The notes: a model not told the origin generated them from the sequence alone. A DNA stretch of 64,000 bases from Bacillota bacterium (GCA_030057555.1 JASGUU010000020.1:5286-69285), one strand, 5' to 3'; numbered from the stretch's first letter, positions 7,453 through 60,625 are shown. Program-made: numbers and translations.

Positions 7453-8117
7453 ACCTCATCTCAGGCCTGCTCCGGCCACACGGAGCCGGCCTTGAGCCGA
7501 GCCCTGAACCCTGCAGCCTGTTCTCAAGCGCCTGCTGGCGCTGCAAAAGCATCGGGGCCCCCGTACAGGACACGTCCGGCACCCCTGAGATGAGACTGAG
7601 GGAATAAGACAACCTGTCTGAGACCACAACATGGACTGCACACCGGAAAAATGGATGAAACACGTTTTGAGGTGTGCTGTGTACCGAACATTTCAGGCCG
7701 CCCGCCTCGGACCGAAGAAGCTTCCCTTCCCGATGCCGGTTACGAACCGGATTGGGGACGAAATGGCCTTTGCCCGACTGGTGGATGAAAAGATTCACTG
7801 AGATTCCAGGCAGTGGAATAGCAGCCCTGGCGCCTTGCCTCATGTGCTGATCCTTTCGACCACGACAGAGAACGGCAGGAGGCGCACCCAGGCGGGAAGC
7901 GGATGGTCGGCCGGGGCAGCCAGGCTCTGACAATTTCTGCCTGTCACCAGTTCTGCGACAAGAGCAAGGGCATCCATCAGGAGAAGACGGGATACGGGAG
8001 CTATGACATCCATGGCATGGCTGACCCAGCGCTTATTCTTTTGGATCTCCTCAAACTCGAGCATGTCAAGCTCACGGAGTGTCTGTGGACCATGCATGGT
8101 GTTGCTACCAGGGAGCC

Positions 8118-8927
8118 GCCTGCCCTTTTAAGCGACAGCAATGAAACGGAGCAAAGCTGCACCCAGAAAGCGCGCGTGTCTGACTGCATCCGCAGGCAGA
8201 CAAGCTCATGTGGCCACTCACGGACAGGAAAAACGAAAGTTCGCCGCCGACCCCGGCGGATGCATGTTCCTTCGACAAAACGGGGTGCAAGTCAGGAGTT
8301 TCGGGAAGCGGTTGAGCATGCAAGGAGGACGGCTGGCAGGGAAAAAGCAGCCTGCGGACTTCTGGTGGTCAAAACGAAGAGTAATCCAAAAAACAATTTG
8401 GATTACTCGTTATCCTGACCACAAAAGGGGGGGTTCTGGTCAACTTTGGGAGTTATCCAAAAAATAATTTGGATTTCTCGCGATCCTGACCACAAAGGGG
8501 GCGTTTCTGGTCAACTTTGGGAGTAATCCAAAAAACAATTTGGATTACTCGTCATCCTGACCACAAAAGGGTGGTTTCTGGTCAACTTTGGGAGTTCGCC
8601 AAAAAACAATTTGGATTACTCGCGATCCTGACCACAAAGGGGCTGTTTCTGGTCAAAACGAAGAGTAATCCAAAAAATGATTTGGCAAAGTCTCCATCTT
8701 GACCACGAGAGGCGCGCTGCTTATCAGAATCGCCTTTATCACACGACAACAGGGCAACAGAATCTGGATTGCTTCACAATCTTCTGGAACGTGCCAGACC
8801 GTGCCTGTCTGCCTCGCTGCCCGCTATCCTATTCCTATCCCATTCACATTCCGGCCGTCTGTGAGTCTGGCCGCTACGCCGGCACATGGAGAAGGGATTT
8901 CTCCTGCGCCTGCATGCAGACTGCGCT
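8118..8927 (+). repeat. Modular non-coding dispersed element, copy 1 (left arm, 4.5 x 71-nt array, right arm)
   Basis: Aligns by eye end to end with the reverse complement of 37055-37498. No ORF is conserved between the copies. Confidence 0.75.
8367..8710 (+). repeat. Tandem array of 71-nt double-hairpin units (4.5 copies)
   Basis: Unit starts ggtcaa at 8367, 8438, 8509, 8580 and 8651. Each unit holds gagtaatccaaa-aaacaa-tttggattactc plus tgacca-N15-tggtca. Confidence 0.9.
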
Positions 8928-9128
8928 AAAGCTTCGATGTTTCAGGTGTTTAGGAAGGCTCAAAAAGGTTTGACTTGTCCCGACAACAAATACGACATGC
9001 CCCCCAAATGGAGCTTAAATGAACTACAGGGTGCCGGATGTGTAGTACAGGGGGCCCTTCATCTGGTTCTGCACTGCCTGTACAGGATTCCTGTCTGTCG
9101 GGGAGCACCGGGGCACCTGCCTGCCGCT

Positions 9129-10148
9129 TCAGGGCTCTGCCGTGCTCTCCCCGGCCGCCCGGTTTTCTGCAGCCGCCTGCTCCTCCGCGATTCTGGCCGC
9201 CTCTTCCCGGACACGGATGCGCTCAAAGAGCTCATCCTGATCCGCGACAATCCGGTCGAGGAGGTCGAAGCCGAGATCCTTTTCGCCGCCGAAACTGGGT
9301 TTCATCAGAAAGACCTCGCGTCCGTAGATTCCGAAAGCCTCGAAAATACCGCTCTCCGTGGCGTCTAAGATGTAGATGGGCACTTCCGCTCCCGGCGTCC
9401 CCGCTCCGCCCGTCGTGGCGTTTTCCTCCTCAGGCTCACGCGGGGCCAGACGGACCGGTGTGAACAGTCTCAGGACGCGCTCTTCGCCGTGCTTCGCGAC
9501 GAGCCGCTCCCAATAGTCGTCAAACGGCTCGAAAAAACCCTCCTCGTGGAAAAGATCAACATGGCTCTGGTCCAGAAGCATCAGATCGGTCGGCTGCGAG
9601 CCGGACATATAGATCATGCGCTTCGTAATGGCGGCCATCTCCATCTCGGGATCGATGTCGCCCCCTATGGTCAGAACTTCGAAGACAGGCTTCTCGATCG
9701 TTTCGATCTTCGCTGCATAATCACCAAGTGACTCAATCTTCTGGTCCTGTGTCAGACTCGAGCTGCCGACATCGACAATGGCTCCGATCGCCGCCAGCTG
9801 CAGATCCGGCTGCTTGTTCGTAAGGACCGTCACGATGATCGAAATAACGAGGGCGAGCGCCAGTGCGATGGCGATAAAGGGCCGCCAGCCGTAGTGGATG
9901 ATGTTTCGCCACTGATAGACGGACTTCCCGAAAACCACGCGGCGGTCACTGGCTTTCGGCGGAACAAAGGGCTTATCGTCGCCCTTGAGGTGCCGGTAGG
10001 CGGCATTGATGCGCTCAAGCTCCGCTTTTCCCGGCTCGTCGATGCGTTTGGCATAGCCCTTGATCAGGCGGCCATAGCGCGCCTCGATCTCGTGGCTGTT
10101 CGCCTTTGTTCCCAGACCCAGAATTTCAAGGGCTTCTCTGTTGGTCAA
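9129..10148 (-). CDS. Membrane-anchored protein with N-terminal J-like domain (no HPD motif)
   Basis: N-terminus REALEILGLGTKANSHEIEARYGRLIKGY...INAAYRHLKG resembles a DnaJ J-domain but lacks HPD. One TM segment (FIAIALALALVISIIVTVL). TTG start with GGAGGAAG upstream. Confidence 0.6.
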   Translation of the reverse strand: MTNREALEILGLGTKANSHEIEARYGRLIKGYAKRIDEPGKAELERINAAYRHLKGDDKPFVPPKASDRRVVFGKSVYQWRNIIHYGWRPFIAIALALALVISIIVTVLTNKQPDLQLAAIGAIVDVGSSSLTQDQKIESLGDYAAKIETIEKPVFEVLTIGGDIDPEMEMAAITKRMIYMSGSQPTDLMLLDQSHVDLFHEEGFFEPFDDYWERLVAKHGEERVLRLFTPVRLAPREPEEENATTGGAGTPGAEVPIYILDATESGIFEAFGIYGREVFLMKPSFGGEKDLGFDLLDRIVADQDELFERIRVREEAARIAEEQAAAENRAAGESTAEP

Positions 10149-10468
10149 GTCTCACTTCCTCCGAGCGGCTTCTTTGGGAAATTCAGATCATGCAATGTAC
10201 AGATGTCGAGCAGGAGCCGATTACAGACATGTCCAGATCGGCAATATCCCAAAGCTTCATAATCCTTCCGGCATGCTGTAACCCTACATGACACTGCTCT
10301 CCTGCGCTCAACACCTGGAGATTATAACGCTTTTTAAAAAACGGCCGATGAACGTCCGGCAAACAGGAAAGAAAACATGTCCGTCCGAGGATCCGGCCAG
10401 AGGTGGTGAAAAGGCTGACATCAGCTGCCGAAAAAGAAGAGTTCGCGCTGTTTGTCTTCAGATGCGGA

Positions 10469-11719
10469 TTACAGCTTAATCCTTTTCGGAAAGGCTTCCC
10501 TGCTCATGATGCCCCACATTTTGTCGATGTACGAATATGTGTAAAAGCTCTCGTAGTGATGGTAGTAAAATGCCCCTTTTAATGTCATGGAGTAGGTGCC
10601 ATCTTTTTCTTCCAGCAAGCCCAGTTTCTCAGCCACTCGAAACTCAAGCCCGTAAAAGCGGTAAAAATCCTCTCCGAAAAAGGCCTCAAAATCGCTTACA
10701 CGCATTTCGTTGCCATACAGGGTCCAGAACAGATAGTAGATCATCCTCTGTCTAAGCGAGAACTTGATCGTGAGGGATGTCGGGAGGCGATGATCATGAA
10801 CACGCCTGATGTACTCCTCCACGGAGAATGTGTTTATCTTAAAGCTGTCCAGCAGCAGGGTTGTCGCCGAACAGCCGAATCCCAGAAAGTTGTCTCTGGT
10901 CATGGATGAATAACCGGCATCCTTTTGACTGGCAAATGTCCAGATGGATTTGCGCACACAGCCTTTGTCCAGCAGATACCTGGTCGTCTGGTCGAGCAGC
11001 TTTCTTTTCTCGTCTTTCTTCATTTCGCCTATTTCGTTTTTTGTAAAGGCAAAATCGATGAAGGGATAAATGGCTACGTGGTTCGCTCCCAGCGCAAAGG
11101 CCATGTCCAGATCCGCTTTCAAGTCCGCGAAGGACTGGCCGGGCAACGCAAAGATAAAGTCCATGGACACCGTGTCAAAGCTGAAATCCGACAGGATCCT
11201 GGACAGATGATCCGTATCTATCTTTTTCCTGCCCAGTATATGCTGGTATTTGTTGTTAAACGACTGAATTCCGATGCTGACTCTGTCTATGCCGGCCATC
11301 TTCAGGGAGCCCAGGATATCTTCCTGCAGATCGCTCGGATGCAGCTCAATCCCCATGCCTTCTTCGATATCGAAATATGTCCCGAGCTTTTTCACGACCT
11401 CGCCTGTTCTGTCTGAAAGCAGAGCCGGGCTTCCGCCGCCAAAGTACAGGCTCGTGACCTTTCTCCTCTCCTTTCCGGAGCAGACCAGGTCTATCTCATG
11501 CATTAACGCGTCCATGTATCTGTCCGCCAGATCCGGAACGTATTGCATTTTGCAGTAGGGACAGAATTGGCAGATGCTTCTGCAAAAGGGTATGTGCACA
11601 TAGAGGCCCAGATTGACCAGATCCTGATATTCGACGGAACTGTCATTCCTGTCGGTAAAAACGAAGGGTCTAAAAGACCTCGTGAGATACATTCTGGTAA
11701 CGGTAGACAGAATACTCAT
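10469..11719 (-). CDS. Radical SAM enzyme, HemN/HemW (coproporphyrinogen III oxidase-like) family
   Basis: CxxxCxxC motif in YVHIPFCRSICQFCPY, GGGSPALL, and a HemN_C-like C-terminus. SD AAGGAGAA. GC about 42-48% against 58-68% in neighbours. Confidence 0.9.
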   Translation of the reverse strand: MSILSTVTRMYLTRSFRPFVFTDRNDSSVEYQDLVNLGLYVHIPFCRSICQFCPYCKMQYVPDLADRYMDALMHEIDLVCSGKERRKVTSLYFGGGSPALLSDRTGEVVKKLGTYFDIEEGMGIELHPSDLQEDILGSLKMAGIDRVSIGIQSFNNKYQHILGRKKIDTDHLSRILSDFSFDTVSMDFIFALPGQSFADLKADLDMAFALGANHVAIYPFIDFAFTKNEIGEMKKDEKRKLLDQTTRYLLDKGCVRKSIWTFASQKDAGYSSMTRDNFLGFGCSATTLLLDSFKINTFSVEEYIRRVHDHRLPTSLTIKFSLRQRMIYYLFWTLYGNEMRVSDFEAFFGEDFYRFYGLEFRVAEKLGLLEEKDGTYSMTLKGAFYYHHYESFYTYSYIDKMWGIMSREAFPKRIKL

Positions 11720-12140
11720 GGTCTTCTCCTTGTGAGATTCTCATACAACCAAATGTATTACTTGCCTTCAGCCATTCGGCACCCTGTTTGTGGCCGGTGC
11801 TGGACTGTTTCACGACTGCAGCCTTTGGCAGCCTGGCAGCGGCCCGCATCATTCCATCTTCACCGCTGCTGGTCCACCGCAACCAGGTATACGTGCAGAC
11901 ATGCCTGTCGCTCCTGCCGACAATGACGTTGCCGTCAACGACCCGGCGGGGAAAGACCCGATAGAAACAGCAGCCCGGCGTCGATAATGTGTCGTTGAAG
12001 CCCACAGCGCTCACCACGCAGAGACAGCTCATCCTCGTCTCGCCCGGTGCCTGACGGTAGATGACCTGAGTCTCAGCATCCGGAGAAGCCGTCCAGCACA
12101 ACTGTGCGGTGCTTCCGAACAGGTGAAACAGACGAGTCAT
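11670..12140 (-). CDS. Hypothetical Cys-rich ORF, possibly a gene remnant
   Basis: Only an open frame. It overlaps the radical SAM start by 50 nt and runs through that gene's SD. No family recognised. Confidence 0.25.
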   Translation of the reverse strand: MTRLFHLFGSTAQLCWTASPDAETQVIYRQAPGETRMSCLCVVSAVGFNDTLSTPGCCFYRVFPRRVVDGNVIVGRSDRHVCTYTWLRWTSSGEDGMMRAAARLPKAAVVKQSSTGHKQGAEWLKASNTFGCMRISQGEDHEYSVYRYQNVSHEVF

Positions 12141-22358: not shown

Positions 22359-22385
22359 GTCGGCAGGCTTTCTCGCTCGTTTGGG

Positions 22386-22640
22386 CAGGATCGAGAGAAA
22401 TCCAAAAAGTAATTTGGAAAACTCCCCATCTTGACCACAAAAGGGTCGTTTCTGGTCAGGATTAAGAGAAATCCAAAGAGTTATTTGGAAAACTCCCCAT
22501 CTTGACCACAAAAGGGTCGTTTCTGGTCAGGATCAAGAGAAATCCAAAAAAAGATTTGGATTACTCGCCGTTTTGACCACCAGAGGACTGTTTCTGGTCA
22601 GGATCGAGAGAAATCCAAAAAGTAATTTTTCATCCTAATC
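22386..22640 (+). repeat. Tandem array of 71-nt units (3.5 copies), variant of the 8367 array, no arms
   Basis: Unit starts cagga at 22386, 22457, 22528 and 22599. Units contain agagaaatccaaa...tttgga and cttgacca-N15-tggtcagg. Confidence 0.85.
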
Positions 22641-26578: not shown

Positions 26579-26708
26579 GTGTGCAATTTTTACGGGCTGG
26601 GCGGGTTTCGGCTGCGCTGAACGGAAATTTTGCACAGATAAGGGGGTGGAGTGTGCAAATTTTACAGGCTGGACGGGTTTCGGCTGTGCAGAACGGAAAT
26701 TTTGCACA
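26579..26708. repeat. Two 58-nt palindromic units in the addB-addA spacer
   Basis: gtgtgcaatttttac...ggaaattttgcaca at 26579-26636 and 26651-26708. Terminal inverted repeats of about 12 nt, 72-nt phase. Confidence 0.85.
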
Positions 26709-36942: not shown

Positions 36943-37054
36943 AACACCGGCCATGACGCCAGAACAATCACCGCTCCTCCTGCGTTTTCCCGTGAATCTG
37001 CCGGCTGCCCGTGTGCCTGCGCAGCGGGATCACGGGATGTGCCTGCTACCGGGC

Positions 37055-37498
37055 AACTGAGTCCATGCAGGCGCACAACCAGGCACGTTCCAGGAGATTG
37101 TGAAGCGATCCCAGCTTCTATTGCCCTGATGCCGCAGGATTATGGCGATTCCGACAAGCAGCGCGCCGTGCAGCGGCGTGCGCGCCCTTCTTTGTGGTCA
37201 AGATGACGAGTAATCCAAATCCGTTTTTGGATAACTCTGCGTTTTGACCACCAGAAGTCAGCGAGCTGCTTTTCTCTCCCCGTATCAGCCGTCCACCTGA
37301 CATGCACCCCCGCTTCCCGACACGCATGACATGCACCCCCATTCTGTCGAAGCAACATACGCCAGCTTAGGTCGGCGGCGAACTTTCAAGTTCCCTGCAT
37401 GAAGATGAACAACTGAAGCTGTTATTCCCGGCTTCGGTCATGTATGCCAGCTTTTTGGCGCAGCTTTGCTCCATTTCATCGCTGTCGTCCAAAAGCAG
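37055..37498 (-). repeat. Modular non-coding dispersed element, copy 2 (single 71-nt unit)
   Basis: Its reverse complement aligns with 8118-8927. The single hairpin unit lies at about 37188-37257. Confidence 0.75.
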
Positions 37499-46493: not shown

Positions 46494-46640
46494 GTGTGCA
46501 GAATTTCAACCTTCCGCGGTGAAAGTGCGCGGATACTTGAAATATTGCACATTTCAGAACCCTTCCGCTCAGAATTTCAACCTTCCGCGGTGAAAGTGTG
46601 CGGAAACTTGAAATATTGCACATTTCAGAACCCTTCTGCC
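46494..46640 (+). repeat. Two 71-nt hairpin units related to the 26579 family
   Basis: cagaatttcaaccttccgcggtgaaagtg.gcgga.acttgaaatattgcacatttcagaaccctt repeated at 46499 and 46570. Confidence 0.85.
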
Positions 46641-50599: not shown

Positions 50600-50774
50600 G
50601 ACCCGGGTACAGTATGCAGTGCACAGAAATGCGAGTTATGCGCATTTTCTCTGTGGACAACTCGAATATTTGCACATAATCCGCTTTGAGTGCTGATTTC
50701 ACGCTCAATGATTCAAGATATACACGAGCCGGCGTGTATGTCTTGTAATCCTGCTCACAACCCCCTTATGCATC
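50600..50774 (+). repeat. Low-GC intergenic element, copy 1 of 2
   Basis: Shares gacccgggtaca.tatgcagtg, ttatgcgcattt, aactcg.at.at, tgcaca/tgtgcaa, gctcac and ttatgcatc blocks, in order, with 60472-60625. Confidence 0.6.
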
Positions 50775-56517: not shown

Positions 56518-56779
56518 GGTTTTTTCCTTTCTTCTTCGTCGGAATCTGGGCTTTTTCATCAGTCGCAGGGGTACGATTTGTACAAATGGTATATCACATG
56601 ATACTGGCACTTTGTGTCTATCCATCGATCACTGAACCCATGGTAACAAACGACGCACAGAACGCGTGTGGGCCGGGGAGTTTGCAGATCACAAAAACGG
56701 ACACCGGCTGCTTCGTCTCATTGTTGGGACAAAGCCATGCCGGCGCCCGTCTTTCTGTATCTGGTGGCTGAATGCGTCA

Positions 56780-56899
56780 GCTGCAACCGGTGGTAGTGCC
56801 GCAGTCGCTCGTCTGCGGCGACCTGGCTGCAACCGGTGGTGGTGCCGCAGTCGCTCGTCTGCGGCGACCTAGCTGCAACCGGTGGTGGTGCCGCAGTCG
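56780..56899 (-). repeat. 46-nt tandem repeat (2.6 copies) duplicating the last 9 codons of nrdJ
   Basis: gctgcaaccggtgg starts at 56780, 56826 and 56872. The third copy is the nrdJ 3' end (DCGTTTGCS-stop). Confidence 0.9.
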
Positions 56900-60471: not shown

Positions 60472-60625
60472 GACCCGGGTACAATATGCAGTGAGCAATA
60501 AATCGATTTATGCGCATTTATGCGTGTATAACTCGGATTATTGTGCAAATATTGCTCAATATTTCGACTTATGTACGGAATTGCGTGTACAGGTCGCTTT
60601 TTTGCTCACGCCTGGTTATGCATCA
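60472..60625 (+). repeat. Low-GC intergenic element, copy 2 of 2
   Basis: Same ordered sequence blocks as 50600-50774. Ends with a short hairpin and TTTTTT (60598-60603). Confidence 0.6.

Follow-up and report, generated by a model that had tools for sequence, protein, structure and literature searches.

A probable composite interspersed repeat with an array of 71-nt hairpin units in an uncultured Bacillota bacterium

BOX elements are composite repeats with the layout boxA-boxBn-boxC, in which the number of boxB modules varies between strains and of which Streptococcus suis carries variants with larger arms, of 115–133 nt (PMC3049150). REPINs are inverted doublets that also occur in tandem arrays and fall into several sequence families (PMC3116915). 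Here we describe an intergenic element of related construction in a 64,000-nt stretch of DNA from an uncultured Bacillota bacterium (GCA_030057555.1, JASGUU010000020.1:5286–69285; referred to below as the window, with positions counted from its first nucleotide). The full element is about 0.6–0.9 kb long and comprises a left module of up to 245 nt, one to five tandem units of 71 nt, and a right module of up to 300 nt. On balance, we think it probable that the element is a non-coding composite interspersed repeat of the BOX/BIME type, restricted to its lineage and carrying an internal array of variable unit number. We class it as a new family within a known kind, the bacterial composite interspersed repeats, and not as a BOX, a REP or a member of any family of MITEs, the miniature inverted-repeat transposable elements.

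A preliminary description of this DNA had aligned the plus strand at 8118–8927 with the minus strand at 37498–37055 by eye, and had presented the two regions as two copies of an unnamed element. The likeness is real: by BLASTN and local alignment, 8125–8425 (plus strand) is 75% identical to 37495–37191 (minus strand) over 310 columns (E 3e-51), and on the right side 8650–8795 is 72% identical to 37250–37082. The identity of the left arms, each of about 245 nt, comes to about 68–75%, depending on how gaps are counted. The shared sequence blocks quoted at the time are present exactly in both copies and were contained in none of 100 shuffled sequences, and the arrangement of arm, array and arm is borne out. 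The edges need to be moved, the left ones to 8125 and 37495 (from 8118 and 37498) and the right end of copy 1 to about 9000 (from 8927), which gives copy 1 a total length of about 875 nt. The count of two did not hold. The window is near-identical to part of a 660-kb contig in ENA (ERZ2647912 NODE_6), of which we read 83 kb, and lengthening the window by 9 kb on each side, by way of the proteins encoded at its ends, brought to light a third armed copy (copy 4). Together with an array that has no arms (array 3), at least four loci in about 83 kb carry the 71-nt unit, all of them intergenic; within the window the unit matches lie at 8.4, 22.4 and 37.2 kb. The parts of these loci are as follows.

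8125–8365, plus strand: left arm of copy 1 (241 nt, 58% GC); aligns with 37495–37251 on the minus strand, and its proximal ~85 nt also align with copy 4.
8366–8720, plus strand: array of copy 1, with units starting at 8366, 8437, 8508 and 8579 and a degenerate fifth at 8650.
8721–9000, plus strand: right arm of copy 1 (280 nt, 52% GC); aligns with copy 4 (L107 7190–6809) up to window position 9000, and its first ~90 nt align with copy 2.
37251–37495, minus strand: left arm of copy 2, aligned with the left arm of copy 1.
37180–37250, minus strand: the single 71-nt unit of copy 2.
37047–37179, minus strand: shortened right arm of copy 2, without ~100 nt that are common to copies 1 and 4; its distal edge is approximate.
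22382–22628, plus strand: array 3, 3.5 units of the 71-nt family without arms, found by Tandem Repeats Finder (TRF) and with a degenerate unit pattern.
L107 7414–6809, equivalent to window +65807–66412 and thus beyond the right end of the window: copy 4, made up of ~85 nt from the proximal part of the left arm, three units and a 300-nt right arm.

All three armed copies (1, 2 and 4) consist of a left arm, one to five units and a right arm, and because their junctions between arm and array are identical, we take arms and array to have spread together at least three times. Hidden Markov models of the arms found no match at array 3. The copies differ through internal deletions and truncations. 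In copy 4 the left arm lacks its distal ~160 nt. The ~100 nt at about 8800–8905, which the preliminary description took for an addition to the right arm of copy 1, are present in copy 4 too; they are therefore ancestral and were deleted in copy 2. That copy 2 keeps the distal right terminus, another possibility that we considered, was not upheld by alignment. The numbers of units given for the two copies, 4.5 and one, are better stated as four full units and one degenerate unit in copy 1 and one unit in copy 2.

In the 71-nt unit, the first 57 nt make up an imperfect palindrome (TGGTCA ... TGACCAC) and the remaining 14 nt a G-rich linker, AAAGGGGnnGTTTC. Read in register it runs TGGTCA, seven variable nucleotides, GAG-W-W-A-TCCAAA, a loop of six nucleotides, TTTGGA-W-W-A-CTC, seven nucleotides, TGACCAC and then AAAGGGGnnGTTTC. 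Identity between units is 85% within an array and 76% from one array to another, and across arrays that are otherwise 24% diverged the outer hexamers, the GAG/CTC pair and the TCCAAA/TTTGGA pair are invariant. As DNA, single units form hairpins with z-scores of −6.2 and −3.3 relative to shuffles, and as RNA the whole array of copy 1 folds at −138 kcal/mol (z −10). Within the stem, 179 of 198 pair cells are Watson-Crick, none is G-T and 15 are A-A or T-T; both sides have changed in only one cell, and three mid-stem positions switch between A and T without compensation. This mid-stem pattern is not the signature of a selected RNA helix; it agrees either with motifs of recent common descent or with a protein that recognizes the sequence. 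Several named structures were set aside from the unit sequences. A CRISPR array is ruled out, the whole 71-nt unit being conserved and its variable positions being scattered over the loop, the two 7-nt internal segments and the core of the linker, with no contiguous spacer. Integron attC end motifs, DnaA boxes (TTATCCAAA is present in some units only) and a Rex half-site (TTCACAA, in the right arm) were rejected on reading, since these motifs either vary from unit to unit or lack the palindromic form that such sites require.

The arrays appear to change in length by whole units. TRF places a 71-nt array at 8379–8685 (4.3 copies, 85% matches) and scores a higher-order period of 142 nt more highly; array 1 is made from a two-unit block that was duplicated. 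Array 3, which has 3.5 units in the window, has 4.5 in NODE_6 of the same strain (L094 11921–12238), the difference being an exact duplication of one unit within flanks that differ by 1–2 bases over 20 kb. This is what slippage or unequal exchange produces, and it agrees with the earlier characterization of the array as expandable. Arrays 1 and 4 have the same number of units in all samples seen.

The comparison with pneumococcal BOX elements that had been proposed for this element holds for its layout and for the variable number of its internal modules. As in BOX elements of S. pneumoniae, and in the boxE/boxF variants of S. suis, two different end modules flank a tandem internal module whose number varies between strains, the whole lies between genes and codes for no protein, the internal module folds mostly by itself, and variants with larger end modules exist on the same internal module. 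In other respects the comparison does not hold: the element has no complementarity between its arms, the search for terminal inverted repeats gave nothing significant and no short target-site duplication was seen. BOX modules measure about 59, 45 and 50 nt, whereas those of the element, compared by layout and size and not by sequence, are several-fold larger (about 245, 71 and 300 nt), and its host is an unrelated, high-GC, uncultured lineage of Bacillota. With the REP, BIME and REPIN sequences of Enterobacteria and Pseudomonas the element shares extragenic imperfect palindromes, an inverted doublet that folds into a long hairpin as single-stranded DNA or as RNA, tandem arrays with fixed linkers, and the presence in one genome of several sequence families of the same geometry (PMC3116915). 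In contrast to those systems, no RAYT gene is found among the genes called in the 83 kb, the middle of the stem is without compensatory change, and nothing in REP or BIME corresponds to the long, non-palindromic arms. REP and REPIN sequences number in the tens to hundreds per genome; the 83 kb read here hold four loci. Like MITEs (Correia, RUP, Nezha), the element would be non-autonomous, and it is non-coding, AT-rich relative to its host and intergenic, with a strongly base-paired core and one copy that has flanking direct repeats; unlike them, it is larger (up to ~875 nt) and has no significant terminal inverted repeats, the one flanking repeat that it has measures 20 nt and is embedded in a simple-repeat tract, and no insertion sequence with matching ends was seen, those of the IS66 element nearby being different.

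The four loci differ in their relation to the neighboring genes.

Copy 1: between convergent genes, the upstream gene 670 nt away.
Array 3: between convergent genes, a deaminase-like gene and addA.
Copy 2: between co-directional genes, 60 nt downstream of a co-oriented gene for a 521-aa protein and 240 nt upstream of pta.
Copy 4: between divergent genes, an acetyltransferase gene and rpsU.

Orientation relative to the genes is thus inconsistent across loci, and the suggestion that the element lies downstream of a co-oriented gene and is probably transcribed with it has to be given up as a general statement. At copy 4 the flanks CTCGAGTCCTCAAGTCCTCA and CTCGAGTCCCCAAGTCCACA form a direct repeat with 18 of 20 positions identical, a match that none of 500 shuffles equaled; the repeat stops 7 nt short of the element and picks up again 1 nt beyond it. 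Either a target was duplicated or a short repeat was split, and copy 4 looks inserted in both cases. At copy 2 the nearest relative to hand (L103, GCA_023442635.1, PTA 66% identical) keeps the local gene order, with only 98 nt between pta and the orthologue of the 521-aa gene, compared with 743 nt here; that orthologue aligns to the C-terminus of the 521-aa protein at 32% identity. The short spacer would be consistent with copy 2 being an insertion. In base composition, the arrays (41–47% GC) and the arms (52–60%) stand apart from the region as a whole (62%), and AT-richness relative to the host is listed among the features of mobile repeats (PMC3049150).

We note that copy 1 lies in a 4-kb stretch of about 50% GC (8000–12100) in a genome of 62–63% GC, together with three minus-strand genes that encode a HemN-like radical SAM protein and two proteins of no family, of 339 and 156 aa; this stretch may be acquired DNA. 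The neighbors of the element (the HemN-like radical SAM protein, an MtaA-like protein, and the 339-aa and 521-aa proteins of unknown family) showed no link to it and no significant match to a defence system, the only PADLOC match among them being a weak one to pVip for the radical SAM protein (E 0.0026).

Searches outside this organism did not trace the family. Exact-pattern scans for the unit gave no match in 185,579 GTDB species genomes (a representative set that does not contain this genome), in JGI metagenomes or in IMG/VR, and the right-arm pattern had none in JGI and IMG/VR. A six-frame query of 8100–8830, which was also meant to reveal further copies by way of spurious open reading frame (ORF) calls, matched nothing among 5.8 billion proteins, and no plasmid or phage match was obtained. 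The 83 kb held no in-genome paralogues through which more of the genome could be sampled, and contigs of other samples that were reached through an IS66 paralogue contain neither unit nor arm. None of the relatives is close: the protein collection has no PTA between 100% and 66% identity to that of this organism, and the best GTDB loci are at 62% or less. The element appears to be lineage-restricted, and judged from these sequences it is confined to one metagenome-assembled genome.

Comparison with other samples bears on how the copies evolve. In sample ERZ2647956, a low-coverage assembly, three of the four substitutions over 4.1 kb fall within copy 1 (L012) and seven are clustered in copy 4 (L108). 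Since the substitutions cluster in copies 1 and 4, the elements, as far as a low-coverage assembly can be relied on, therefore evolve like unconstrained DNA. Six transitions in 65 nt separate the right arm of copy 4 in this sample (L108 58–188) from NODE_6. Because only one of the six matches copy 1, gene conversion from copy 1 is unlikely to lie behind them, and they reflect either real hypervariability or error in the low-coverage assembly. Logan contigs of several samples stop at shared positions close to copies 1 and 2, namely at window 7677, 8829 and 37439–37466. We disfavor the idea that these break points are repeat boundaries and think strain heterogeneity around the elements more likely, because in one sample copy 2 is spanned intact (L115); a JGI contig (L123) also runs through 7677. 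Position 8829 is located at a short run of TATYCC hexamers.

If the element is a composite interspersed repeat, as we suppose, the armed form would have spread by insertion, either as a non-autonomous mobile element that uses an enzyme encoded elsewhere in the genome or by illegitimate recombination. Inserted copies would then decay, roughly neutrally, and arrays would lengthen or shorten by replication slippage or by unequal recombination between units. Effects on the cell would be by-products: read-through of an array would produce a row of stable stem-loops, which could stall 3′–5′ exonucleases or attenuate transcription, and effects of such stem-loops on transcripts have been reported or proposed for REP, BIME and BOX sequences (PMC3049150).

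A number of observations weigh against this account. The count of copies comes from 83 kb of a 660-kb contig. The difference of one unit in array 3 could have arisen if a short-read assembly collapsed two identical 71-nt units into one. The direct repeat at copy 4 lies within a short tract of the (AGTCCTCA)n type and need not be a target-site duplication, for which 20 nt would be unusually long, and the flanks of copies 1 and 2 contain no significant direct repeat (58 and 80 of 500 shuffles, respectively, score as well). Nor do the ends carry significant terminal inverted repeats: no inverted repeat between the arms was found, the best alignment of left against right arm being matched by 133 and 170 of 1000 shuffles, and a candidate picked out by eye, GGGGTGCAWGTC...TCGGGA against the right end, is not significant. 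The 83 kb contain no candidate for a mobilizing enzyme, the only transposase within reach being that of an IS66 element with GTAAGCG-type ends unrelated to those of the element. The relative that offers an apparent empty site at copy 2 is, with its PTA at 66% and the neighboring protein at 32% identity, too distant for a clean one. Finally, conservation along the arms is more uneven than in column shuffles (P 0.0025 for the left arm and 0.03 for the right), partly as a result of clustered gaps, and some blocks of the arms may for this reason be under selection.

Another possibility is that the element is a large structured non-coding RNA, or a 3′ or 5′ untranslated-region element, with the arms as its conserved scaffold and the hairpin array as a module that can be extended; we regard this as unlikely. 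The block-like identity of the arms would suit such an RNA, as would the great stability of the array when folded as RNA, the position of copy 2 just downstream of a co-oriented gene and upstream of pta, and a short hairpin adjoining the conserved GAAAGTTCGCCGCCGACC block, which copies 1 and 2 both retain, with 3′ halves that differ between the two. The arms themselves, on the other hand, fold no better than shuffled sequence (z +0.76 and −1.42 for the left arms of copies 1 and 2, and +1.42, in copy 1, and +0.06 for the right arms), so that only the array is strongly structured. Consensus folds made with alifold from two sequences per arm have equal energy on both strands and are uninformative, and only a handful of changes in them are two-sided. 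Copies 1 and 2 yielded no promoter-like site, and terminator-like sites are no commoner in the elements than in shuffles. Convergent, co-directional and divergent contexts all occur, the loss of 100–160 nt of arm is tolerated and one array has no arms at all; the mismatches in the hairpins are uncompensated and G-U pairs are absent; and the element regions gather substitutions between strains. A search of Rfam, which had been recommended, gave no match in the window at the gathering score, and even at E ≤ 5 no described RNA family was matched, copies 1, 2 and 4 yielding only sub-threshold chance matches to eukaryotic and archaeal families. An insertion sequence or a pseudogene fares no better, there being no encoded or decayed protein common to the copies. 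As had been noticed, no ORF is conserved: the left arm of copy 2 has stops in all frames, and the frame that carries the conserved blocks switches twice. On present evidence, then, the element is neither a two-copy oddity nor a structured RNA. As a description of the sequence the preliminary account is accurate, and its caution in naming the element was justified.

Other explanations give the leading part to the palindrome, to duplication or to a protein. The 57-nt palindrome could be the only mobile entity, moved like a REPIN by a hairpin-recognizing HUH/Y1 (RAYT-like) enzyme, with the arms being ordinary sequence that was duplicated along with one array. Array 3 has units without arms. The unit is built as REPINs have been described to be (PMC3116915), an inverted and symmetrical doublet whose outer motifs are invariant and whose spacer and loop vary. 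Two further repeat families in this genome resemble it, family C in hairpin geometry and family B in its 71-nt period, with a closed 57-nt hairpin in the first unit only. We nonetheless doubt this explanation, given three independent armed copies with the array at exactly the same junctions, the 83 kb without a RAYT or Y1 transposase gene, and mid-stem changes that are uncompensated here whereas REPIN spacers are reported to show compensatory ones. It is also improbable that the copies are plain, ancient segmental duplications of one intergenic segment, immobile and without function, in which the array is a local variable tandem repeat. Only four loci are known; the copies, being 70–75% identical, are old; there are no inverted termini, and two of the three armed copies have no target duplication. 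These points are countered by the occurrence of four loci in 83 kb in unrelated intergenic contexts to which no flanking genes were carried along, by the sharp edges of copy 4 inside a 20-nt direct repeat, by the arm-less array of the same unit elsewhere, and by a relative that has only a short spacer at the site of copy 2. Least probable in our view is that the arrays bind a nucleoid-associated, partition or regulatory protein on DNA, at the half-sites TGGTCA/TGACCA and TCCAAA/TTTGGA. The motifs on both halves of the palindrome are invariant across diverged arrays while the pairs between them are free to break, a combination that fits recognition of sequence better than recognition of a hairpin; but no candidate binding protein is linked to any locus, the four contexts are unrelated, the unit number varies freely, and the arms would be left unexplained. 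More far-reaching interpretations can be considered, and we give them little chance: the 57-nt TG...CA palindromes could be substrates of an unrecognized hairpin-specific recombinase or transposase, in which case the armed copies of 0.6–0.9 kb would represent non-autonomous composite elements of a new type, one that lacks inverted termini, or the arrangement of arm, array and arm could be a new large modular RNA whose function is tuned by the number of hairpins.

The two further families mentioned above are located as follows.

26579–26708, family C: two 72-nt units, each a 57-nt palindrome closed by TG..CA (TGTGCAATTTTTAC...GGAAATTTTGCACA) with a 15-nt G-rich linker, GATAAGGGGGTGGAG.
46495–46639 (and L001 1–420), family B: 71-nt period, two units in the window, the first unit being a 57-nt TGTGCA...TGCACA palindrome (TGTGCAGAATTTCAA...TTGAAATATTGCACA).

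Family C lies within a gap of about 300 nt between addB and addA, which gene callers fill with a 103-aa ORF; the relative L103 has no such gap. In sequence family C is unrelated to the unit of the element, and it has the same geometry of 57 plus 14–15 nt. Family B shares the 71-nt period with the element, and its TG..CA-closed 57-nt hairpin is formed by the first unit only; NODE_6 shows at least 3.5 units of it before a run of N, which means that either the unit number differs or the assembly is unresolved there. A common geometry in unrelated sequences suggests that hairpin repeats form a structural class in this organism, the 71-nt unit of the element being the most dispersed member that we saw in the genome.

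Other repeats in the region are of different kinds. At 56779–56899 a 46-nt tandem repeat (2.6 copies, 96% matches) is located at the 3′ end of a class II ribonucleotide reductase gene; the window appears to be one unit longer there than NODE_6, as BLAST segments overlap by 120 nt in the window and by 74 nt in L107. Small palindromic repeats at 60523–60577, at 50600–50678 and 60472–60551 (a pair in the window that is 78% identical) and at L110 16906–17030 have words in common that include ATATTTCGACTTRTG and TGTGCAAATATT. One cluster of them adjoins the left end of the IS66 element, which is intact and lies at L110 17033–19720, about 5–8 kb to the left of the start of the window. It has ORFs for a 116-aa protein, TnpB_IS66 and a 544-aa DDE transposase between 35-nt inverted ends of the GTAAGCG type, and a version of the transposase that is 94% identical is found in other samples.

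These repeats have practical consequences for work on this organism. The arrays break short-read assemblies: in several samples Logan contigs run out in the opening unit of array 3, and further contigs stop inside or close to copies 1 and 2. Gene callers also annotate false ORFs on repeats of this sort, one being the 103-aa call on the addB-addA repeat. Because the number of units differs between assemblies, the arrays could serve as strain markers. To our knowledge, no such elements have been described in this deep, uncultured lineage of Bacillota. Sequence families unrelated to each other share one hairpin geometry, which hints at a common mechanism, and if the element is indeed a composite interspersed repeat, it would add a new and unusually large family to those known, alongside BOX, BIME and NIME.

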